DNA of 64,000 nucleotides, from positions 2,762 to 66,761 of the forward strand of contig JAXGYI010000002.1 of assembly GCA_040772365.1 (NCBI GenBank). The letters run 5' to 3'. A program made the position numbers and the translations under genes. Under the pieces are notes generated by a model. It was given only the letters and a program-made list of their open reading frames with translations, was not told the origin of the DNA and did not search any database. Source of the DNA: Candidatus Moraniibacteriota bacterium (lineage in GTDB: Bacteria > Patescibacteriota > Minisyncoccia > Moranbacterales > GCA-2747515). This document shows positions 5,410-17,629 of this stretch, one piece after another. Within the stretch, counting starts at the first letter, position 1. Each line of letters begins with the position of its first letter.

Positions 5410-6948
<1,539 letters not shown>

Positions 6949-6950
6949 CT

Positions 6951-7076
6951 AGGGAGATAAGGTGACGAGAGTTGATGGTCAACATCAGGTTCTCAAAACC
7001 CATAAGGTCGTTTGCACATCTTTTAGTGTGCAATCGCGACTCAAGATAGACGTATAGGACTAACCGCAAAAGACAG
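6951..7076 (+). repeat. direct repeat copy 1 (about 126 bp) immediately 3' of 16S
   Basis: AGGGAGATAAGGTGACGAGAGTTGATGGTCAACATCAGG...AAAAGACAG; near-identical copy at 15604-15729 (2 mismatches). Confidence 0.9.
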
Positions 7077-7101
7077 AATATATCTTGTTAGAAACAAGAA
7101 A

Positions 7102-7125
7102 ATCGTTATTTGTAACGATTTTTTT
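7102..7125 (+). terminator. intrinsic terminator 1 downstream of 16S
   Basis: atcgtta-tttg-taacgat stem followed by TTTTTT. Confidence 0.6.
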
Positions 7126-7173
7126 GTTTTTGTGTGCTTCCATATTGTATTGGCTGGTACACATCATTTTGTC

Positions 7174-7197
7174 AACCGGCCATAAGCCGGTTTTTTT
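7174..7197 (+). terminator. intrinsic terminator 2 downstream of 16S
   Basis: aaccggc-cataa-gccggtt stem followed by TTTTTTT. Confidence 0.6.
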
Positions 7198-7419
7198 GAC
7201 TTGCGCACGTAGTGCTTGTGGTCTGTGTACAGCAATACACAATCACAAGCGCTGCGTGGGCTGGTTATATGTCCGGCTAATATATCACCGTCCAAGGCAT
7301 ATTGGGTGGACAAATAACCAGCTAAAAACGATAAATTGCTCATATTTGTAAGATTTGATATATTTATTATAAGAAACCTAAAATACTCTGCTATATAATA
7401 ATAACAAAAACTTTCAACT

Positions 7420-7635
7420 ATGAATGAAGGCAGATTTGAACAATTTGTTAGCCAGCCGGAATTGGAAGAAAAACTTAAAAAAGCTCCAAGGAAACAAAGA
7501 ATATTTTTGATGAGCTTGAGAGTGAAAAAAGAAATGAATCATTTATTAATGAAGATAAATCTAAAAATGAAAAAAGTGCAAACAAGAGAGACCTTAGAAA
7601 GAAAACTGCAGGTTTTATTGAAAAAGATGGTGTAA
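7420..7635 (+). CDS. small Lys/Glu-rich ORF, possibly the 5' part of a frameshifted gene
   Basis: ORF overlapped by a frame-3 ORF open from 7479; several A6 runs at the overlap. Confidence 0.25.
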   Translation: MNEGRFEQFVSQPELEEKLKKAPRKQRIFLMSLRVKKEMNHLLMKINLKMKKVQTRETLERKLQVLLKKMV

Positions 7636-8087
7636 TAATAAAAAAAGAAAAGAGGCATACAGGCAAAGGAATTGATTCAGTTCGCCATCCTAAAGGTGAA
7701 ATCTCGACAGCCAGTAAATATGAGCAATTGCAAAAAGAATTAGAAGATCATGGCATGAGTCATCCGGGTGAGTGGCGTAAAACCTATGATGAAGATTTTG
7801 AAAGTGCTATCCATAAAAATTTTGACGCATTATACACTTATCTTGAGGGTGAAAAAAGGGTCTCTGACAAAGAAAAAATAAAAGCATTTAGCGAGACTGA
7901 AGACAGCATAGAACGGCTGGAGCTTTTGAGGTCTATGTCGCTTACTGATGCGGTTAAATGCTTGCGAGATTATGCTGACAACCCGGGACAATTCCGCTAC
8001 CTGGCCAATCGTTTGGATTTTTATCAAAAGTTATTTCAAGGCAAAGCAACACGTTTTATTCTCAATTATCACGACAGAAGCAAATAG
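7479..8087 (+). pseudogene. hypothetical ORF with no canonical start (TTG at 7728 or frameshifted continuation of 7420 ORF)
   Basis: open frame from the stop at 7476-7478 to 8087 with no ATG before 7755; overlaps the SRAP-like remnant in another frame. Confidence 0.3.
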
Positions 8088-8289
8088 TCTTGTTGGAAAA
8101 ATTCATGATAGCATACCAGTTATTCTGAGAAAAGATGAGGAAAAACAATGGCTTGATACGCATATGAAAGATGATGAAATCATGCAATACTTGAACAAAT
8201 ATACAAGTGAAAATATGAACGTGTACGATATATCCACATTAGTAAACAGCCCACATAATGATATGTCCGATGTTTTGCTTCCTGCATAA
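8005..8289 (+). pseudogene. C-terminal remnant of an SRAP (YedK/HMCES-like SOS-response-associated peptidase) domain
   Basis: FSIITTEAN..GKIHDSIPVIL..WLD....STLVNSPHND matches the SRAP C-terminal consensus (tftIlTt.an..iHdRmPvil..WL..pVs..VNsp.nd); the N-terminal part with the Cys2 nucleophile is missing. Confidence 0.4.
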
Positions 8290-8394
8290 ATATAATTCTA
8301 CATGTACCATTTTTGTATGAGTCAGTTCTAATGGTTGACTAGAAATGAAATAATGTATACACTATAGTGATATTTTTATTGTTGTAATTTATAT

Positions 8395-9502
8395 ATGGTT
8401 CCAGATTATATTCTGCAAATAATAAAAAAAGATATAAAGAGCATGAAGGGTCGCAATGGTAATTTTGTTGTCCCAAATTATAAGCCAGAAACTCATTATT
8501 TGGACCTGACTAGCAGTAACTACTATTTTGCTCTTCTGTGTATCAGAAACCATATTAAGCTAATTTCAGACCACTATTTCAATACTATTATCGGCGCGAA
8601 GAATATTGACCTTTTTATGCTTACGCCAAGCATATCATCTCCAATGGGGCCTGGCTCAGATTCGGAAGCAATTCCAATAACATTTGGCAAACTCAGTTCA
8701 TATCTTGTTGACTCATCACAATTTGGTTTTGAGCCTTTGATTTTAAATGGGTTAGACAAAGTATATTGCTATCTTCCATCAATGAGGGGGGAGGATTATG
8801 ATAATCGTCATCTAAATCAATTCTATCACTGTGAAATGGAGATGGCGGGTACACGTGAAGAGATGAAGAAGATCATCGAAGGTTATATTAAAATTCTTTC
8901 TGAAACATTATTGGAGGCGAAGGAAATAGTTGCTCTGATATCAGTTAATCCTAAAGTATCAATTGCAGTTTTAGAAGAGTTGGTCAAACAAGGTAAATTT
9001 GCGGAATTCACTTTTGATGAAGCTGTTGAACTTTTAGAAAAGAATGGTAAAAAACATCTTGTAAATTATACGAATACAGGTAGGGATATTAGTTCGGATG
9101 GTGAAATTGAATTGATGAAGATTATAAATCATAGATTACCTATTTGGTTGAATGACTTTGATAGAGATAGGGTGCCATTTTATCAAAAACCACAAGCAGA
9201 CAAAGTTATTGCGTCCGATTTGTTATTTACCCCCATTGCAAGAAGGTGCTTTTGGTGGTGAGATAGTTGGCTGTGGTCAGCGGCAAGATACAGCTGATGA
9301 AATTTACGAATCTTTAAAAAGACAGGGCCTTAATGCTGAACCTTATGAATGGTATATTAATTTGCGAAGACAAGAAAACTATGACACATCATCAGGGTTT
9401 GGATTCGGCGTAGAGCGTTTTATTACATGGGCATTGGGCATGAATGATATTAAGAATGCCATTATTTATCCTAGATTAAAAAATATTGATACTAAGCCTT
9501 AA
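8395..9502 (+). pseudogene. class-II aaRS-like amino-acid ligase (AsnRS/AspRS-type catalytic core, no anticodon-binding domain), frameshifted
   Basis: motif-2-like RGEDYDNRHLNQFYHCEME, then DLLFTP | LQEGAFGGEIVGCGQR and motif 3 GFGFGVERFITWALG; the two halves are in frames 1 and 2 and are joined by removing one C from the C5 run at 9230-9234. Confidence 0.65.
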
Positions 9503-9507
9503 TTAAT

Positions 9508-10347
9508 ATGTTTATGAATTCGTTCAATATTGATGAATTGGATTATTCCAAATTAGTGTCCATAGTTAAAGAGCGTAATCGTCCGTCCGGTGGTATTAAA
9601 ACAGTACATGAGGTTGCAGTAAATGCATTTGTGGATTCTTCAAAAAAAATGCTTGAAATTGGAAGTAATACAGGCTTTACAAGTGTTAATATGAGTCTTT
9701 TGACGGGATGTGATGTTACGGGTATTGATATTAATCAAGGGTCTGTAGATGAATCCATCGCATATGCTAAACGCAATGGTGTGGAGAAAAATACAAAATT
9801 TCAAGTTGCATCTGCAACAGAAATACCATTTGATGACAAATATTTTGATATAGTGTGGAGCAGCAATGTTACCTCATTCATAGATGATAAAAGTGCGGCA
9901 ATCAGAGAGTATTTACGAGTTCTTAAAGTGGGAGGTATTTTAGTTGTGGTGCCAATATATTATCATAGTGAACCTCCTGCGGATGTGATACGCAGTGTAT
10001 CAAAAGCAATTGGTGCTGAAGTAAAAGTTTGGGATGAGAAATTTTGGATTGACCAAGTACAAAAAAGTGCACCACAAGATGAGAATTTTGTTCAACTCAT
10101 ATATAAGTCATCGTATCGATACGACGATAAAAGTGATAGTGTGAGCAGCTATGTGGATGAAATATTTAACAAAGAACATTTAATTGCATATTCTGATGAA
10201 GCAAAAATGATGCTAAAGAATCGATATGCAAAATATATGGACATTTTTAATACCAACTTGCAGTACGCACAGTATTCGGTGCTATTATTCCAAAAACGAA
10301 ATGAGGCAGAAGAAGTGGAGCTTTTTACAACAAAGAAAAATAATTAG
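9508..10347 (+). CDS. class I SAM-dependent methyltransferase
   Basis: motif I LEIGSNTGF, motif II FDIVWSSNV, motif III LKVGGILVV. Confidence 0.7.
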   Translation: MFMNSFNIDELDYSKLVSIVKERNRPSGGIKTVHEVAVNAFVDSSKKMLEIGSNTGFTSVNMSLLTGCDVTGIDINQGSVDESIAYAKRNGVEKNTKFQVASATEIPFDDKYFDIVWSSNVTSFIDDKSAAIREYLRVLKVGGILVVVPIYYHSEPPADVIRSVSKAIGAEVKVWDEKFWIDQVQKSAPQDENFVQLIYKSSYRYDDKSDSVSSYVDEIFNKEHLIAYSDEAKMMLKNRYAKYMDIFNTNLQYAQYSVLLFQKRNEAEEVELFTTKKNN

Positions 10348-10361
10348 TAAAAGCTCATGCT

Positions 10362-11378
10362 ATGAGTGAAATTTTAAAACCACCATGTTTAAAAAAAGGT
10401 GACACTATTGCAATTGTGAGCCCGTCTTCAACAATTCAGCCATTTCCTCGACGTACAAAGCGTTCTGTAGGTTATTTGGAGAGCAAAGGATATAAGGTTG
10501 TATTTATGCCAAATGCCAAAAAAAATGATGGTTATAGTGGTGGCACTGCTCAAGAGCGTGCAGATGATATTAATAAGGCATTCCTCGATAAAAAGATAGA
10601 TGCGATTCTGTGCTCAACCGGTGGTTTAACAGCCAATGCTATTCTTCCATATATAAATTATGATCTTATTCATAAAAATCCAAAGATTTTTTGTGGATAT
10701 TCTGACATCACAACTCTTCTTTTGATGATTACATCAAAAGCAAATATTGTTACATATCATGGACCAACGCTCTTGCCGAGTTTTGGAGAATATGAAGGGT
10801 CAATTGGATTTACTTTTGATAGCTTTGAAAAGATGCTTTCTTCTAAAAAGGCATGTGGCGTACTTCCAACTGCGCATGAAATCGTTGCAAATAATCAATA
10901 TTGGGACAAAGAAGATGTTGAGTCGCTTGAGATGAAAGAGGCTGAGGATATCAAGTCTTTTGGAAAATCACGAAAAATCAGTGGAAAAGTATTTGGTGGT
11001 AATTTACAAACATTTACAATGTTGATGCATGATAAGGGATTTTTTGACCTAGAGGACACCATACTTTTATTGGAAGAAGAAGGTCTATCAACTGATTGGT
11101 ACGAGCGATATATCACTGAGCTTGAAAGATTGGGTATCTTTGAAAAAATTAATGGTATTATTTTTGCAAAGCCAAGCAATAGCTACAAAGAACCAAATAA
11201 AAAAATAAGAAATCTCGACCATATTTTGCGTGAAATATCTGATAAATATGACTTGGGAATCTTGAGTAATGTTGATTGTGGCCACACAAAACCATTATTG
11301 ACGATTCCACTTGGCATTGACGCTGAAATTGATACAAAAGCAAGAACTTTATCAATAAAGGATGCAGCAGTCTGCTAA
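10362..11378 (+). CDS. S66 family LD-carboxypeptidase (LdcA/MccF-like)
   Basis: IAIVSPSS N-terminal strand, GYSDITTLL Ser-nucleophile motif, C-terminal CGHTKP His motif. Confidence 0.65.
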   Translation: MSEILKPPCLKKGDTIAIVSPSSTIQPFPRRTKRSVGYLESKGYKVVFMPNAKKNDGYSGGTAQERADDINKAFLDKKIDAILCSTGGLTANAILPYINYDLIHKNPKIFCGYSDITTLLLMITSKANIVTYHGPTLLPSFGEYEGSIGFTFDSFEKMLSSKKACGVLPTAHEIVANNQYWDKEDVESLEMKEAEDIKSFGKSRKISGKVFGGNLQTFTMLMHDKGFFDLEDTILLLEEEGLSTDWYERYITELERLGIFEKINGIIFAKPSNSYKEPNKKIRNLDHILREISDKYDLGILSNVDCGHTKPLLTIPLGIDAEIDTKARTLSIKDAAVC

Positions 11379-11395
11379 TTATTATCATTGATATT

Positions 11396-12643
11396 ATGCA
11401 AAAAACGGTCATAATAGTTGAACATGACACGCCAAAAGAATTTTTGTTAAAAAAAGCAAAGGAAAGAGGGTATCGTGTTGTGATGGTTGCAAATAGTCAG
11501 AATGAACTGTTTAATAAATATCTTCCCAATGAAGATGTTTTAATCACTGATGTTTTCAATTTGCACACAATTCTGGAAGATGTGCTATTTTTTGTGAAAA
11601 AAAATAACTTGCATATAGATGCGGTAGGAACATTTAGTGAAGAACTTGTTGTAGCAGCATCAGACATTGCGCAATCTTTGGGATGCAAAGGAATTGGACA
11701 ACTAGCAAGTAGAAGAACTTCAAGCAATAAACTGGCCATGAGAATGAGATTAGATGAAGTGGGAATTATGCAACCTGCATTCTCAGCGTTCAATATTTTT
11801 GAAGATAATGATGACATGCTGCGTAGTTTTCCAAAGCCCTGTGTTATAAAGCCGATTTTTGGCACTTCAAGTCATGGCGTTATTCTGATTGAAGAAAATG
11901 ATTTTGATTACAAAAAAATACAAGAAATAGTTAAAGCGACGGTGAATCGTAAATGTAGAGAAGCATTTCGAAGATTTCGCGGAAACATGCTTGTGGAAGA
12001 ATATATTCCTGGAGATATGATATCTGTTGATGGATTTGTTAATGATGGAAAGGTATCTATTATTGGCACCTTGGAATTTATAATGGGGAAAGAGCCATAT
12101 TTTACACAAACAGCGAGTTATATTCCGGCACGTTTATCAAAATCGCAAAATGGTAATATCCAAACATATGTTAATAATGTCATACATGCATTAGATTTTG
12201 ATTGCGCTCCATTTCATATGGAAATTCGAATAAAAAATGAAAAACCACATTTGGTGGAAATTGCCGGCAGAATGGCTGGAGCCACAATTCATGAAGCTTA
12301 TGATAAAGTTTATGGAATTGATATGATTGGCTTGATGTTTGACTGTTGGTTTGGAGAATTATCATTTCCAAAGTATCAACATAAGGGAATCAATTATCAT
12401 GAGTTATTTTATCCGAAAATTAATGATACTTGTATATTAAGCGAGGTAAAGGGCATCGACGATATAAGAAAAGAAAAAGATATATGGCATTTCAAAATGA
12501 TATCCGATAAAGGTGACACCTTAAAAACATATCCTAATTTGCCAACCCCACTATTTGAATATGCAATTTTTTCAAAGAATTTTGCTGAAATTGAAAGAAT
12601 TAAAGATATGATAAAAAAAATGATTACGTATGATATCCAATAA
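11396..12643 (+). CDS. ATP-grasp domain ligase
   Basis: CVIKPIFGTSSHGVILIEE and LVEEYIPGDMISVDGFV, typical ATP-grasp B/C-domain motifs. Confidence 0.6.
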   Translation: MQKTVIIVEHDTPKEFLLKKAKERGYRVVMVANSQNELFNKYLPNEDVLITDVFNLHTILEDVLFFVKKNNLHIDAVGTFSEELVVAASDIAQSLGCKGIGQLASRRTSSNKLAMRMRLDEVGIMQPAFSAFNIFEDNDDMLRSFPKPCVIKPIFGTSSHGVILIEENDFDYKKIQEIVKATVNRKCREAFRRFRGNMLVEEYIPGDMISVDGFVNDGKVSIIGTLEFIMGKEPYFTQTASYIPARLSKSQNGNIQTYVNNVIHALDFDCAPFHMEIRIKNEKPHLVEIAGRMAGATIHEAYDKVYGIDMIGLMFDCWFGELSFPKYQHKGINYHELFYPKINDTCILSEVKGIDDIRKEKDIWHFKMISDKGDTLKTYPNLPTPLFEYAIFSKNFAEIERIKDMIKKMITYDIQ

Positions 12644-12666
12644 GTTTTATAATTGAGAATACGGCA

Positions 12667-13135
12667 ATGAAAACTATTTATCTAGGATGTGATCACGCGG
12701 GATTTGATTTTAAAGAAAAGGTGAAGAACTATCTAATTAAGAAAAAATTTGATGTTGTAGATTTTGGCACATATACATACAATGAATATGACGATTACCC
12801 AGATTTTTTACATCCTGTAGCTCAGGCGCTTTCGCAAAATCCACAGGAGAGAGCAATAATTTTTGGAGGTTCTGGCATGGGGGAGTCGATATTGTTGAAC
12901 AAATATAACGGTATACGTTGTGGCGTATGGTATGGAGGTGATAAGTCAATAATTGCAAACTATAGAGGAACATGATGATATTAACGCTATAGCTATTGCA
13001 TCGCGCTATGTGAATGAGGATATATTGTATGATATTGTTGATGTTTTTTTAAGCACAGATTTTATTAAAGAGGAAAAATATATTCGTAGACTGAATAAGA
13101 TTGAAAATAAATTTAAAACCGAAAAGGGAGTGTGA
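12667..13135 (+). pseudogene. rpiB: ribose-5-phosphate isomerase B / sugar-phosphate isomerase (RpiB/LacAB family), frameshifted
   Basis: MKTIYLGCDHAGFDFKEKV...GGSGMGESILLNKYNGIR matches the RpiB N-terminus; the C-terminus NAIAIASRYVNEDILYDIVDVFLSTDFIKEEKYIRRLNKI matches in frame 2 after a single-base shift near 12950. Confidence 0.6.
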
Positions 13136-13152
13136 CCCTTTTCGGTTTTAAT

Positions 13153-14214
13153 CTAGATGGCATATAGTTTTGCGAACATCTCTGAGCCAAAACCGCTTGA
13201 ACAAAAAACCATCTTATGATTATTGAGTAGTCCTTTTATCCAATCCTTGGCGCCACCATCAATTAAAGAACATCTCTTACCATTCATATTTTCTGCGGAT
13301 ATTTTGAAACATAATCCGCTATGATAACCAAGACCAGCTGACCTTTCCAAATGATACTGGAAAAGAATATCTGGATAGCTATTGGCAAGTTCTTTAATCT
13401 TTGGGTCAAATAATTGGAATAGTCGAAGCTCGTCTGTGATGTCAATTACCTCGCTTGATGTTGAATCTATCTCATTCGGATTAATAGTTGCCGGAATATC
13501 AATGCCAAGACTTTTAAAAGTCGGTTTTTCATCCGTCCGAATTGACTTCGAAAATGCATTCCTATCGATGTTTAACCACTGGACAACCTTCTCCATGATG
13601 TGCGTATTGGATATTGAAACCTTGATGTTTTTCAGAAAATATTTTCCTGAAGAATTCAAAGCATTCAATATCATCAGCCATGAAAATATATGGCTTCCAA
13701 TCAAGTCTAAAATTATCTGGGAATCAGAGTTTTTTTGAGTACTTGATAGGGCAAATCCACGAAAGTGCTGTGTCAGGTTTGATTCAAGTGAAAATTTTTG
13801 CATCCTTACCATTCGACCACTTGTTGCAAAGCATAAGGGACTAACAGAATCAGTCCATTTTTTTGCAGATTCTAATGCGAGTAGTATTGTGATATCAGCA
13901 AGCACCTCAACATCTTTAATGGTTGATAGTACTGTTTTTTGGCTAATCTCACTGAGCGTGCTACTTGCACCAATTGGTGCAAGGGGTGAAAAATCAAGAA
14001 GCTCAAATTCATGAGGAAGAGCTTCTAGAATAACACTATCTACATTAAATAACGTACGTGCATTAGTTGAACATGGTCCCACAAAAGCATTTCTCTCGTA
14101 GTTTTGACGAATATCCGAATGTTTAAGGCTTTTGACCTTTTCAAAAACAATAGATAACAGGTAAGAATAAAACTTACTCCACCTCATTGTGATGATATCT
14201 TCTGATTTATTCAT
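13153..14214 (-). CDS. hypothetical protein; possible HisRS/HisZ-like class-II aaRS-fold paralog
   Basis: C-terminal LIDGGAKDWIKGL...CSSGFGSEMFAKL weakly resembles the HisRS motif-3 region (GGRYDgL...aVGFaiGlERL); otherwise no match. Confidence 0.3.
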   Translation of the reverse strand: MNKSEDIITMRWSKFYSYLLSIVFEKVKSLKHSDIRQNYERNAFVGPCSTNARTLFNVDSVILEALPHEFELLDFSPLAPIGASSTLSEISQKTVLSTIKDVEVLADITILLALESAKKWTDSVSPLCFATSGRMVRMQKFSLESNLTQHFRGFALSSTQKNSDSQIILDLIGSHIFSWLMILNALNSSGKYFLKNIKVSISNTHIMEKVVQWLNIDRNAFSKSIRTDEKPTFKSLGIDIPATINPNEIDSTSSEVIDITDELRLFQLFDPKIKELANSYPDILFQYHLERSAGLGYHSGLCFKISAENMNGKRCSLIDGGAKDWIKGLLNNHKMVFCSSGFGSEMFAKLYAI

Positions 14215-14382
14215 TTTTCACCTCCTCGGTTGTTAAGGTTCTTGACTGGTGATTCTATATCTTTACAGTACAATTGTCAATTTGATAATATTGACTGATG
14301 TGGTTATTTCTGCTAACCTGTTTTGAAGGCAAAAATAGTGATTTTGTACGTTAACATCATAAGATATTGGGAGGCTCATATT

Positions 14383-15234
14383 ATGAACGCCACAATTTTA
14401 TATGGACTTTTAGAGGCCGCATTTATTGCAAAAACAATGAGTGATAGTTGGGCTAAGTATATGAGCGAAGTTGGTGATTATTTGTGTGGAAATTTCATGC
14501 ATCGCTCAATGGGATTGGTTTGCGATAATGCTTCAGAAATCGAATATGTATACACAGCAGTATTTCCAGAAAAAAGTATTATGCAAGCGATATTAGATTC
14601 AGGACAAAAAAACGCATTGCTATTTGTGCATCACCCATCTGTTTGGAGTTATATAAACGCAAAGTTTACATATGTACAAATGGAAAGAAAGCTTTTGCAG
14701 GAATTCAAAAACAGGAATATATCAATATACTGTTTGCATGTTCCTCTGGATGCCTTCGGAAACTATTCTACGGGTGTAACGCTTGCAAATGCATTGGGTT
14801 TTGATATAGAAAGTTCGTTTGGTCAATATCGCGGGGCGGAGTGTGGAGTTATTGCAAAAACAAATCTCCATGATGTACATGACTTAACAAATGTTTTATC
14901 AAGAATTATTGGACATAGCGCAAAGCTGTATTCGTATGGCGGTTCTGACAATAAGAATGGTAGTGTTGCAATATTGCCGGGAGGTGGAAACGATATTGCC
15001 TTCATCAAAGAGGTTTACCAAATTGGTGTTAATACTGTCATTGTGGGAGTTTCTTCTTTGAACCAAGACACTTACACTGCGCATGAGTTCGAAAAAGATA
15101 AGGGGATTAATTTGATTGGGGGAACGCATTACTCAACGGAAAAATTTGCATGTGAAGCGATGTGTTCATTTTTTCACAATATTGGAATTCAATCAGTATT
15201 TATTCCTGGAAATCCGTTAATGTTAGACTTATAA
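14383..15234 (+). CDS. NIF3 (YbgI/YqfO) family dinuclear metal centre protein
   Basis: LLFVHHPSVW and IYCLHVPLDA motifs, GGTHYSTE near the C-terminus. Confidence 0.6.
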   Translation: MNATILYGLLEAAFIAKTMSDSWAKYMSEVGDYLCGNFMHRSMGLVCDNASEIEYVYTAVFPEKSIMQAILDSGQKNALLFVHHPSVWSYINAKFTYVQMERKLLQEFKNRNISIYCLHVPLDAFGNYSTGVTLANALGFDIESSFGQYRGAECGVIAKTNLHDVHDLTNVLSRIIGHSAKLYSYGGSDNKNGSVAILPGGGNDIAFIKEVYQIGVNTVIVGVSSLNQDTYTAHEFEKDKGINLIGGTHYSTEKFACEAMCSFFHNIGIQSVFIPGNPLMLDL

Positions 15235-15256
15235 GAAAGGAGGGTTAATACAAAAA

Positions 15257-15292
15257 GCCGCAATCAATTGATTTATGAATTGTGGCTTTTTT
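15257..15292 (+). terminator. intrinsic terminator after NIF3-like gene
   Basis: gccgcaat / attgtggc 8-bp stem (one G:U) followed by TTTTTT. Confidence 0.6.
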
Positions 15293-15353
15293 AATTAGAA
15301 TGTGATATTATATTGGTGGTCAAACATCAATTTACACGAAGGAGGATACAACG

Positions 15354-15506
15354 ATGACAATTGACATGTTAGACCGACAAGAGCTCGACGATGTAAAACT
15401 GGCTCGTATGCACCTTGAAGCGTATAATGCCATGATGGAAGCAAGACGAAATTATGAACCATTTGCAGGAATTTGGAACCGCATTCGCCGCATTTTTTGC
15501 AAATGA
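15354..15506 (+). CDS. small ORF (50 aa) with strong SD
   Basis: GAAGGAGG 7 nt upstream of ATG; MTIDMLDRQELDDVKLARMHLEAYNAMMEARRNYEPFAGIWNRIRRIFCK. Confidence 0.3.
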   Translation: MTIDMLDRQELDDVKLARMHLEAYNAMMEARRNYEPFAGIWNRIRRIFCK

Positions 15507-15603
15507 TGAATAAAATCGCCTATCTCACAAAAATACTCTTATACCGCGTATGGGAGTATAATCTTTAAAAAATTAATATTATCTCACGAATCACCTCATT
15601 TTT

Positions 15604-15729
15604 AGGGAGATTAGGTGACGAGAGTTGATGGTCAACATCAGGTTCTCAAAACCCATAAGGTCGTTTGCACATCTTTTAGTGTGCAATCGCGACTCAAGAT
15701 AGACGTATAGGACTAACCGTAAAAGACAG
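15604..15729 (+). repeat. direct repeat copy 2, preceded by a degenerate 16S 3'-end-like sequence (aatcacctcattttt)
   Basis: 124/126 identity with 6951-7076; upstream aatcacctcattttt resembles 16S terminal ggatcacctcctttct. Confidence 0.9.
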
Positions 15730-15825
15730 TGAACAAAAATACATAACAAAGAGCACGGGCTTTTTGTTGTTTATTTTTGTTCGTTAGAAAATTTAAAAAA
15801 ATATCCACATACGAAGGAGGGGTGG

Positions 15826-16200
15826 ATGGATATTTATGGAAAACTTGAGAATGTGCGAAACACCCAAGAGGTTTCGCATTGGCACTTGACGTTCACAAAG
15901 AAGGTGCCAAAGGGTGTTCTCACCATTGGCAACCGATGGGTGGTGACGCTTAACCACCATAGTGGAGAAGCGCTTTTTGATCGGAACGGTTTCCAAGTCC
16001 GATTTGGATCCAAACCAATCGGACAGCCAGCAGAAGAGGAAGCTGCACTACTAAAAGTGTTTTATCAGCTTCTACACCTATTTAGTATCGGGATTGATGC
16101 TGCTCCAGTTGAATTGGAGTATATGGTGGATGAGGATATTGGCAAATTTCTCCTCAACCGCTCGATCACGGCTTCTCTGGAGCCACTGAGGTTGTCATAA
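15826..16200 (+). CDS. hypothetical protein encoded inside the 16S-tRNA-Ile spacer
   Basis: AGGAGG 5 nt upstream of ATG; 124-aa ORF with host-like GC; no recognisable domain. Confidence 0.45.
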   Translation: MDIYGKLENVRNTQEVSHWHLTFTKKVPKGVLTIGNRWVVTLNHHSGEALFDRNGFQVRFGSKPIGQPAEEEAALLKVFYQLLHLFSIGIDAAPVELEYMVDEDIGKFLLNRSITASLEPLRLS

Positions 16201-16276: not shown

Positions 16277-16352
16277 GTGCACGTAACTCAATTGGGAGAG
16301 TGCCTGTATGATAAGCAGGTGGTTGCGGGTTCGAATCCCGTCGTGCGCTCCA
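16277..16352 (+). tRNA. tRNA-Ile (anticodon GAT)
   Basis: 76 nt; acceptor gtgcacg/cgtgcgc, U8, D-stem actc/gagt, anticodon loop atGATaa, T-loop ttcgaat, CCA encoded. Confidence 0.85.
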
Positions 16353-16551: not shown

Positions 16552-17629
16552 TGTGCAATAAAGTGATAGAGGGTGATTATTGTTAACATTGCAGCAAAAC
16601 AGGTAACACTTTTATTAATAAAGGTGTATGCTAAAACGTTATTTTTAGCATAAAACCTCATGAATACCTACGATCCGCGATATATGCAATTACAACAGGA
16701 AAAATTGGAAATGATCATAGTAAAGCGACAGAGCGTCAGATCTGTCGCCAAAGAGCTTTCCGTATCACGAAAAACCATTTACCAGTGGTTGGTACGATAC
16801 AAAACATATGGATTGGACGGATTAAGAAAACAAAAGAGAAAGAAGTATCCCATAGCCCATAACAGAACAAAACAGCATATTGAAAAGACCGTAATCTTTG
16901 TTGCAAGGCAATTCCACACCGAAGGTGTGGAATCTCTTTCAGATATCCTTTATGCGGAATATGGCATTACGCTGCACTCCACGACAATTTACAGGATTCT
17001 TAAAAGAAACAATATCAGATACGGACCATATCATGCCCATACACACAAAAGATGGAAAAAGAAGCTGTATGCACATAGAATACCGGGATCGGAGCTCCAA
17101 ATGGATACGATGTATCCATTTGGATACAAAGCAGGGAAGGTTGTTTACACGATTATTGATGATGCAAGTAGATGGTCATATGTCAAAACATATGATAGAG
17201 CAAATGGTACAAATACTGTCGATTTTTTAACCAACGTCATCAAAAGATCATATTGTGACATTTATAAAATTCGTACAGATCATGGAACAGAATTTATCAA
17301 TGCAAAAACACAAGATTTTCTTAAAAACAACAATATTGTCCATAGAAGAAATACTGTAGGATGTCCAGAGCAAAATGGGAAAATCGAACGATTCCATCAA
17401 ACGCTCAAGAGAGCTTTCAGGTACCATATTCCGTATGACAGTTCTATTGATTCCATGCAATACAAGCTTATCTTGTTCATGCAGTATTACAATTATACAA
17501 AAAGACATCGGGGACTTGGCATGCATGGGCTAACGCCCATGCAAAAGCTGAATGAATTAAGAAGTGTTACCTTGACGCTGCAATGTCACAATTATTGACA
17601 ATACCCATAATATGTGATATAATTGCACA
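16552..17629 (+). mobile_element. IS481-family insertion sequence (about 1.08 kb), apparently intact
   Basis: terminal inverted repeats TGTGCAAT... at 16552 and ...ATTGCACA at 17629; single HTH+rve transposase ORF. Confidence 0.6.
16660..17598 (+). CDS. IS481-family DDE transposase (HTH + rve integrase core)
   Basis: N-terminal HTH (SVRSVAKELSVSRKTIYQW); DDE core TIIDDASRW...RTDHGTEF...NGKIERFH. Confidence 0.8.
   Translation: MNTYDPRYMQLQQEKLEMIIVKRQSVRSVAKELSVSRKTIYQWLVRYKTYGLDGLRKQKRKKYPIAHNRTKQHIEKTVIFVARQFHTEGVESLSDILYAEYGITLHSTTIYRILKRNNIRYGPYHAHTHKRWKKKLYAHRIPGSELQMDTMYPFGYKAGKVVYTIIDDASRWSYVKTYDRANGTNTVDFLTNVIKRSYCDIYKIRTDHGTEFINAKTQDFLKNNNIVHRRNTVGCPEQNGKIERFHQTLKRAFRYHIPYDSSIDSMQYKLILFMQYYNYTKRHRGLGMHGLTPMQKLNELRSVTLTLQCHNY

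Follow-up and report, generated by a model that had tools for sequence, protein, structure and literature searches.

The DNA analysed here, a 64-kb stretch of contig JAXGYI010000002.1 from a Candidatus Moraniibacteriota bacterium (the whole stretch is called the window below), carries in its ribosomal RNA locus a cassette of co-directional genes encoding an AsnRS-like class II aminoacyl-tRNA synthetase core (protein A), a class I S-adenosylmethionine (SAM) methyltransferase, an S66 peptidase and an ATP-grasp ligase. On the strength of sequence comparisons we favour, with a little better than even confidence, the reading that this region carries a minimal module of the agrocin 84 type for the tRNA-independent synthesis of an aminoacyl-nucleotide, with its own hydrolase. 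The original prediction for this DNA, of a small aminoacyl- or peptidyl-nucleotide cluster with an MccF-like hydrolase, stands as the best-supported explanation, except that the ATP-grasp ligase proves to be an accessory and that the copy in the window is frameshifted.

The link to agrocin 84 came from a tblastn search of A against plasmids, which matched agnA (annotated as ‘Agrocin84-synthetase’) on pAgK84; full-text literature searches found no paper describing the cassette. A is 33% identical to AgnA over 335 amino acids (E 1e-50), the window methyltransferase is 36% identical to AgnB1 over its full length (E 6e-64) and the window S66 peptidase is 30% identical to AgnC5 (E 9e-44), which is itself annotated as MccF-like. 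On pAgK84 agnA is followed by the SAM methyltransferase gene agnB1 and then by agnB2, encoding a resistant LeuRS, with agnA and agnB1 adjacent and in the same order as A and the methyltransferase in the window; the neighbourhood also contains two NUDIX genes and additional SAM enzymes. The cassette had been put forward as a strong candidate for an undescribed system, and with homologues of AgnA, AgnB1 and AgnC5 among its products it is not wholly so.

The synthetase-like core and its partner enzymes

Four open reading frames (ORFs), all on the + strand and separated by gaps of 5, 14 and 17 nt, were found where the original prediction had placed them, and Pfam searches bore out each of its family assignments. 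The A gene (8395-9261 plus 9152-9502) matched tRNA-synt_2 on both of its halves (E 1e-14 and 1.5e-11), the methyltransferase (9508-10347) matched Methyltransf_11 (E 9e-20) and also Methyltransf_25/31, the peptidase (10362-11378) matched Peptidase_S66 and S66C (E 4e-38 and 1.5e-23) and the ligase (11396-12643) matched ATP-grasp_4 (PF13535, E 5e-24) and also ATP-grasp_3. The motif strings that had been quoted for these genes are present in the sequence.

The best PDB match of A is the AsnRS 1X54 (E 5.5e-27), in an alignment that begins at residue 45 of the query and residue 128 of the chain, past the oligonucleotide-binding (OB) domain, and a Pfam search of the 368-aa protein gave no match to the anticodon-binding OB domain PF01336. 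The R/E of motif 2 and the GxGxGxER of motif 3 are kept in A, and its family shows no variation in the arginines of motifs 2 and 3 or in the acidic metal ligands. That family is a tight group of proteins of about 372 aa which are around 60% identical across very different lineages and phyla and which NCBI labels only as ‘amino acid--tRNA ligase-related protein’. The positions that read K-Q and D-x-E in AspRS read F-E and E-M-E in A, as they do in AsnRS; in the light of AsnRS and AspRS structures we take these to be specificity determinants.

A neighbour-joining tree of the A superfamily, built without bootstrap or other support values, places the A family as sister to a clade containing AgnA, Bacillus plasmid ‘AsnA’ proteins and multi-domain fusions, apart from true AsnRS, with E. 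coli AsnA as the outgroup and with EpmA grouping with AspRS, away from A. The motifs SSPMGxGSDS, L-x-DS-x-QF-xx-E and FRGE are common to the A and AgnA groups; AsnRS, AspRS, EpmA and E. coli AsnA lack them. The A family forms a clade separate from AgnA and has its own 7-residue insert before the GE(I/V)VG motif. More distant homologues (30-35% identity) are fused to GNAT, HIT, methyltransferase or Asparaginase_2 domains. In P0144, P0151, P0184 and P0162 a carnitine acyltransferase, Asparaginase_2, HIT and an AgnA-like core are combined in large multi-domain proteins, and at least one of these, P0184, comes from a chytrid fungus (Chytridiales sp. JEL 0842, KAJ3415921.1).

It had been suggested as an alternative that such genes serve ordinary amide-bond metabolism, with A as an AsnA-like asparagine or beta-aspartyl amide synthetase, the S66 protein as an LD-carboxypeptidase-like enzyme for cell-wall or small peptides and the remaining enzymes modifying amino acids or muropeptides. 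The top NCBIfam match of A is indeed ‘asparagine synthetase A’ (NF005055), an annotation which members of the sister clade carry in RefSeq, LdcA belongs to the S66 family, the ATP-grasp protein resembles L-amino-acid ligases and the Asparaginase_2 fusions would also fit. However, the NF005055 match scores 160 bits against a cut-off of 389, level with the 155 bits obtained for AsnRS (cut-off 343), which places A in neither the AsnA nor the AsnRS family, and with E. coli AsnA as the outgroup of the tree A does not lie inside asparagine synthetase A, as the original prediction had allowed that it might. Archaeal AsnA in the PDB matches only the C-terminal 80 or so residues of A (E 1e-7). Amide metabolism also sits badly with an S66 protein that is much closer to MccF and keeps its adenine-stacking Trp (see below), and with a rare island- and plasmid-borne trait (about 100 matches in 185,579 species genomes), a poor fit to housekeeping synthesis of Asn or cell wall, and we consider this explanation quite unlikely.

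Truncated class II and class I synthetases modify EF-P or tRNA, and the cassette could by analogy be a macromolecule-modifying system of the EpmA/PoxA or GluQRS kind, in which the synthetase would aminoacylate a protein or tRNA residue, the methyltransferase would modify the adduct and the S66 enzyme would remove it. A has the same size and architecture as EpmA, and translation genes are frequent neighbours in loci from the Candidate Phyla Radiation (CPR). Nevertheless A groups with AgnA rather than EpmA and gave no match to the EpmA model in NCBIfam, the distribution is sporadic and mobile, the HIT, GNAT and Asparaginase_2 fusions point to small molecules, and no conserved candidate target gene is linked to the cassette, all of which makes macromolecule modification very unlikely.

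By its sequence the S66 protein is MccF-like and not LdcA-like. It shares 34% identity with E. coli MccF (E 6e-54) and matches MccF in the PDB at E 8e-51, compared to E 1e-16 to 1e-8 for LdcA entries and an NCBIfam LdcA score of 103 bits against a cut-off of 378, so that the grouping with murein LdcA which the original prediction had held open does not apply. The catalytic Ser, Glu and His and the adenine-stacking Trp are conserved in the window protein; among 88 aligned S66 proteins of the family, 73 keep the catalytic Ser and His and 71, that of the window included, keep the equivalent of MccF Trp186. MccF uses W186 to stack against the adenine moiety of processed microcin C (PMC8323819). 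An alignment of the methyltransferase with MccD, starting at the N-terminus, gives 25% identity (E 1e-18); AgnB1 is the closer of the two. The ATP-grasp protein appears to be of the L-amino-acid-ligase type, with PDB matches to BL00235 Lal (E 1.8e-18) and BacD (E 5e-15), and all of its NCBIfam matches fall under cut-off.

Conservation of the cassette across loci

A scan of 185,579 species genomes for A returned 100 relatives, from which 80 loci were kept, 53 of them CPR/Patescibacteria by record title and the others including Calothrix (one on a plasmid), Micavibrio, Bdellovibrionales and unclassified metagenome-assembled genomes (MAGs). ORF clustering over 87 loci recovered A in all 87, S66 in 81, a class I methyltransferase in 74, a HisZ-like protein that we call U in roughly 29-33, and ATP-grasp and an RpiB-family isomerase in 4 each. 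The last two were always found together, in a subtype made up of the window and loci L001, L013 and L035. Where the flanks were long enough (41 loci with at least 4 kb on each side of A), S66 lay within 6 kb in 41/41, the methyltransferase in 37/41 and U in 14/41. This gene grouping is far beyond chance, and the counts define the conserved unit as A, methyltransferase and S66, with U as a frequent fourth member and ATP-grasp and RpiB as a rare sub-module. The genes are thus co-conserved elsewhere, which the original prediction had left in question, and of the recurring four-gene order that it had proposed to look for the A, methyltransferase and S66 linkage stands; the four-gene unit itself does not, since ATP-grasp is a rare accessory (4/87 loci) and U, present in about a third of the loci, had been overlooked.

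When the agn and mcc proteins were searched against the same 87 loci by tblastn, AgnA was matched in 87, AgnC5/MccF in 80 and AgnB1/MccD in 22, the window among the latter. The cassette is a rare, sporadic, island- or plasmid-borne accessory trait, and recurring gene orders are A-MT-S66-U(-), MT-S66'-S66-A and A-MT-MT2-S66-U(-), where MT is the methyltransferase and (-) marks the opposite strand. In the loci of the second kind (L010, 8867-9814, L022 and others) the upstream S66' has lost the catalytic Ser, the His and the adenine-stacking Trp, and from its sequence it is a catalytically dead pseudo-peptidase paralogue. The linkage persists at 45% A identity in L090; there and in L091 (A protein P0125) the order is MT(-)-A-S66-ProRS-like-unknown (366 aa)-P450, with an MT of a different, CmoM-like subfamily. 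The symbiosis plasmids of Bradyrhizobium elkanii and B. barranii, which are cultured and genetically tractable, carry the A family as well; on these plasmids the order is S66-A-HAD-MT beside nodU, with an A that is 52% identical (L100 on B. elkanii pS05J, 111680-115465). A Bacillus pseudomycoides plasmid has a recurrent arrangement of MT, AgnA-like protein and ATP-grasp, plus an adenosylhomocysteinase.

The three loci whose methyltransferase is closest to that of the window (L007, L020 and L072) have, between S66 and U, a pyridoxal phosphate (PLP) decarboxylase (Pfam Orn_Arg_deC_N) with 27% identity to the MccE N-domain (E 8e-17), and an AdoMet decarboxylase of the SpeH type is found in three others (L027, L042 and L054). 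The PLP ornithine/diaminopimelate-type and the SpeH-type decarboxylases are two different ways of arriving at an aminopropyl group like that formed in microcin C maturation; neither accompanies the cassette in the window. Also encoded repeatedly near the cassette are HIT (5 loci), Peptidase_S51 (4), HD (10), APH-type kinase (8), NUDIX (3), RlmN/Cfr-like radical SAM (6) and GARS-like ATP-grasp (4) proteins.

Class II synthetases make Ap4A, and the HIT and NUDIX neighbours together with the mobility of the cassette could be taken to indicate a signalling or defence nucleotide, of the ApnA type or an aminoacyl-nucleotide, which the core would make and S66, HIT and NUDIX would degrade. A peptidase would be an odd degrader of ApnA, however, no effector or sensor gene is present, PADLOC run on six island proteins recognised no defence system and returned only a generic methyltransferase similarity to mad2, and no A-family homologue was found in viral contigs, making this the least probable of the explanations we weighed and a highly improbable one. 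The absence of relatives from viral contigs also leaves a phage origin unsupported.

The same neighbours bear on the possibility that the cassette confers only resistance, with the AsnRS-like core acting as a high-affinity receptor for an aspartyl- or asparaginyl-adenylate-type antibiotic which the methyltransferase and the MccF-like peptidase (elsewhere HIT, GNAT or S51) would inactivate, no toxin being made. All the hydrolase and transferase types found with A are on record as enzymes of microcin C resistance, stand-alone homologues of MccF, MccG and MccH confer resistance (PMC8323819, PMC9239234), the fusions of A to GNAT or HIT can be read as binding plus inactivating modules, and no exporter was found on the island. 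On the other hand the closest characterised cluster uses the homologue agnA in biosynthesis, the catalytic arginines and metal ligands of A are invariant, and the PLP decarboxylase, AdoMet decarboxylase and ATP-grasp tailoring enzymes would have no role in resistance, so we regard a resistance-only function as unlikely and prefer the aminoacyl-nucleotide synthesis module.

Immediately downstream of the cassette, at least 5 distinct CPR loci encode a full-length, divergent paralogue of LysRS (L004, 11979-13286; L018, 13093-14388; L026, 12972-14294; L033, 12898-14286; L067, 2622-3935), which scores 230-286 bits against cut-offs of 427 and 468; the neighbour of the L018 copy is a canonical LysRS (518 bits). 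By analogy with AgnB2 the divergent LysRS may be a resistant copy of the target, hinting at a synthetase as the target. Nearby ProRS, ThrRS, AlaRS or ValRS genes, or a second class II protein, were also considered as target markers and set aside, as they are scattered and could be there by chance in tiny genomes; only LysRS looked specific.

The frequent fourth member, U, did not appear in the original prediction. In the window it is a 353-aa HisZ/HisRS-like protein with a class II synthetase fold, encoded at 13153-14214 on the - strand, for which Pfam gave no domain match. Its family alignment contains the HisRS-like blocks R-x-x-R-x-Q, R-x-AG-x-GYY, DGG-x-x-DW and SG-x-G-x-E, and 17/24 members show weak tRNA-synt_His matches. 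The AlphaFold model of U reached a pLDDT (predicted local distance difference test) of 92.6 with a 52-sequence alignment, compared to 43 with 5 sequences, and fold comparison of the model indicates a class IIa HisRS-type catalytic domain; hhalign of the U family against the single E. coli HisS aligned the expected block, but with a probability of 2.6%. As U has no C-terminal anticodon domain and its motif 3 Arg is replaced by Leu or Met, it is a pseudo-synthetase of the HisZ/GCN2 type, although its identity to HisZ and to the HisRS-like domain of GCN2 is only 11-16%; no hisG occurs among the U-linked genes, U being linked to the AgnA-like cassette instead. We also considered whether U is a homologue of AgnC1, the cryptic ProRS-like agn protein, and rejected this as hhalign found no similarity.

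The frameshifted copy and its island

The original prediction had mentioned a frameshift, which was located as a +1 shift due to one surplus C in the C5 run at 9231-9235 within the A gene; deleting one C restores an intact 368-aa protein. The RpiB/LacAB-family sugar-phosphate isomerase gene that follows the ATP-grasp gene (12667-13135, + strand) is frameshifted too, by an extra G at 12967-12968. As A and RpiB each hold a 1-nt insertion, the cassette in the window is, judged from its sequence, probably inactive, while the methyltransferase, S66, ATP-grasp and HisZ-like genes are still open. Locus L097 (SRR11702768) is 99.92% identical to the window over 6.4 kb, with 3 substitutions and two 1-nt gaps, and it carries CCCC at the C run and one fewer G at 12967-12968, so that A (368 aa) and RpiB (155 aa) are both intact. 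L096 (SRR13001968), from another sample, has the same RpiB frameshift as the window, and in L001, an 87% identical relative, both genes are intact. With L097 intact and the window and L096 broken, intact and broken alleles co-exist in nature, and the window allele seems to have lost its function very recently, or possibly to be in a switchable state. A further public MAG with this island, L095 (GCA_040769235.1, JAXGLK010000002.1), has 154 gap positions relative to the window in 9.5 kb; it shares the exact S66 protein of the window and many of its ORFs are broken, and since it looks like an uncorrected long-read assembly its gene calls are unreliable.

As had been predicted, the cassette lies in a low-GC island at the rRNA locus, with a GC content of about 34% across approximately 7000-16200 compared to about 47% elsewhere in the window, between the 16S rRNA gene (5411-6948) and tRNA-Ile (16277-16352). 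The island is bounded by two copies of a 140-nt direct repeat, the left at 6937-7076, spanning the final 12 nt of the 16S rRNA gene and the start of the spacer, and the right at 15590-15729, which are 97% identical and spaced by 8653 nt, corresponding to an insert of about 8.65 kb. That the left repeat holds the 3' end of the 16S gene indicates insertion of the island between 16S and tRNA-Ile, in the spacer, with target duplication. No integrase was found within the island and no 23S gene in the 64-kb window, although the 16S rRNA gene is present. Downstream of tRNA-Ile lie a transposase of an rve-family insertion sequence (16660-17598) and then a sortase gene.

Other island cargo comprises a NIF3/DUF34-family gene (14323-15234, + strand), which adjoins the cassette also in L001, L096 and L059, and a remnant of an SRAP (SOS-response-associated peptidase) gene (7948-8289, + strand) covering PF02586 profile positions 144-214 of 214, that is, only the C-terminal third of the domain, and representing decayed cargo. 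Together with small ORFs of no recognised family, this fragment fills 7420-8289 at the left end of the island, which suggests that earlier cargo has decayed. A weak promoter-like site (TTGACT-17-TACACT, 8335-8363, + strand) lies upstream of the A gene and another (TTGACA-17-TAGAAT, 14252-14280, - strand), at 11/12 the best in the region, upstream of the HisZ-like gene; in the promoter and terminator scan of this region, site counts were no higher than in shuffles. A hairpin with a 16-bp stem (13113-13151) between the convergent RpiB and HisZ-like genes is likely a bidirectional terminator.

Proposed chemistry and known antibiotic systems

In the pathway that we propose, the AgnA-like core would, without tRNA, take ATP and a free amino-acid-like substrate, probably an Asn-type carboxamide, and would join the substrate to AMP as a stable mimic of an acyl-adenylate, most likely an N-acyl phosphoramidate. 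AgnA is proposed to do this in agrocin 84, coupling a pentanamide precursor to AMP via a phosphoramide bond (PMC8323819). In microcin C the corresponding step is carried out by MccB, on the C-terminal Asn of the precursor. The AgnB1/MccD-like SAM enzyme would transfer a methyl or a 3-amino-3-carboxypropyl group to the substrate or the product, and the MccF/AgnC5-like S66 enzyme would cleave the acyl-N bond next to the nucleotide, either protecting the producer or processing the compound. In the subtype found in the window, ATP-grasp and RpiB replace the PLP decarboxylase position of sister loci and presumably add an amino acid or alter the sugar, and the HisZ-like pseudo-synthetase, a frequent convergent partner, could be a regulator, a scaffold or a decoy. 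The product is predicted to inhibit an aminoacyl-tRNA synthetase or some other enzyme that forms adenylates. While the domain identities, homologies, co-conservation, island and frameshifts are observed directly, we infer the chemical steps, substrate and target from sequence.

Several points weigh against this pathway. The copy in the window is frameshifted, only 22 of the 87 loci, the window included, have a methyltransferase of the AgnB1/MccD type while the others have different class I methyltransferases, and the assignment of the substrate depends on two AsnRS-type alignment positions. The HIT, S51 and NUDIX neighbours occur in just 3-5 loci each, a modest enrichment. Pfam and NCBIfam scans found neither an exporter nor a resistant target synthetase on the island (agnG was not among the tblastn queries), and by tblastn the genes for the pentanamide, 3'-deoxy sugar and opine-like moieties have no counterpart there (agnE was not queried). 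Finally, the agrocin pathway has been described as ‘unknown’, in PMC8323819, and no AgnA-family enzyme, AgnA included, is known to have been characterised biochemically.

A broader version of this reading is possible, and we put it forward tentatively, as doubtful in its entirety: that CPR bacteria and a few predatory or plasmid-bearing lineages share a hitherto unrecognised mobile three-gene toxin pathway, in which an AsnRS-derived enzyme would make a non-hydrolysable aminoacyl-adenylate from ATP and a free amino acid with no need of tRNA, ribosome or ThiF, with SAM-dependent tailoring and MccF-type control, in which subfamilies would hit different synthetases, LysRS being the one suggested, and in which the HisZ-like protein would be a regulator or decoy. 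If this were true, episymbionts with minimal genomes would hold a chemical weapon against hosts or competitors; to our knowledge, CPR bacteria otherwise have next to no secondary metabolism. The AgnA-like protein, SAM enzyme and MccF-like hydrolase in any case make up a large, sharply conserved family concentrated in these ultra-small bacteria. If the proposed chemistry holds, it would be a tRNA- and ribosome-independent route to aminoacyl-tRNA synthetase inhibitors, made by a compact three-gene system in which a synthetase fold has been repurposed to make a synthetase inhibitor, and it could offer new anti-infective scaffolds. The question is open to direct experiment through the intact, near-identical L097 allele and the Bradyrhizobium carriers, which are in culture.

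Besides HisZ and GCN2, three known systems invite comparison. The AsnRS-derived AsnA of archaea and bacteria (NCBIfam PRK06462; PDB 3P8T and 1NNH) is, like A, an anticodon-less AsnRS-like core of similar size, but A scores well below the AsnA cut-off and no better there than against AsnRS, and the gene context differs.

The nearest relative is the agn cluster for agrocin 84 biosynthesis and immunity, reportedly set out by Kim et al. in 2006. It lies on pAgK84 of Rhizobium rhizogenes K84 and is reviewed in PMC8323819 and PMC4392301. It shares with the window a truncated, anticodon-less AsnRS (AgnA), an adjacent SAM enzyme, an MccF-like S66 peptidase and a mobile, here plasmid, location. Whereas the agn cluster has 17 genes, including AgnB2 (the resistant LeuRS), the AgnG exporter, AgnC1-C4, C6 and C7 and agnD/E, the window holds the three-gene core: tblastn found no homologue of AgnC1, AgnC3, AgnC4, AgnC6, AgnC7, MccB or MccC in the 87 loci or the island, and AgnC2, AgnD1 and AgnD3 gave weak matches in 1-2 other loci and none in the island. 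The window family also differs in occurring mostly in CPR bacteria and in having a HisZ-like partner, which the agn cluster lacks. Aminoacyl-nucleotide antibiotic clusters with an AgnA-type synthetase are an already known kind of system; the papers searched did not describe a minimal form of three genes, its distribution among CPR bacteria and Bradyrhizobium symbiosis plasmids, the HisZ-like partner or the microcin C-like accessories.

Those accessories add to the resemblance to microcin C, whose chemistry depends on an asparagine carboxamide (PMC8323819), whose aminopropyl group is installed by MccD and MccE1, and for which MccH (HIT), MccG (S51) and MccE2 (GNAT) are published immunity enzymes (PMC8323819, PMC9239234, which also document MccD and MccE1). 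Shared features are the MccF-type S66 with the W186 equivalent, the MccD-related SAM transferase, the MccE-like PLP decarboxylase in sister loci and the HIT, S51 and GNAT domains nearby or fused. Microcin C differs in its MccA precursor, ThiF-like MccB and MccC pump, none of which was found in the 87 loci, nor any ThiF in the island, and in coupling the nucleotide by the E1-like adenylyltransferase MccB where the window family has a class II synthetase core. With that core in place of MccA and MccB, the compound would come from a free amino acid rather than from a ribosomal peptide.

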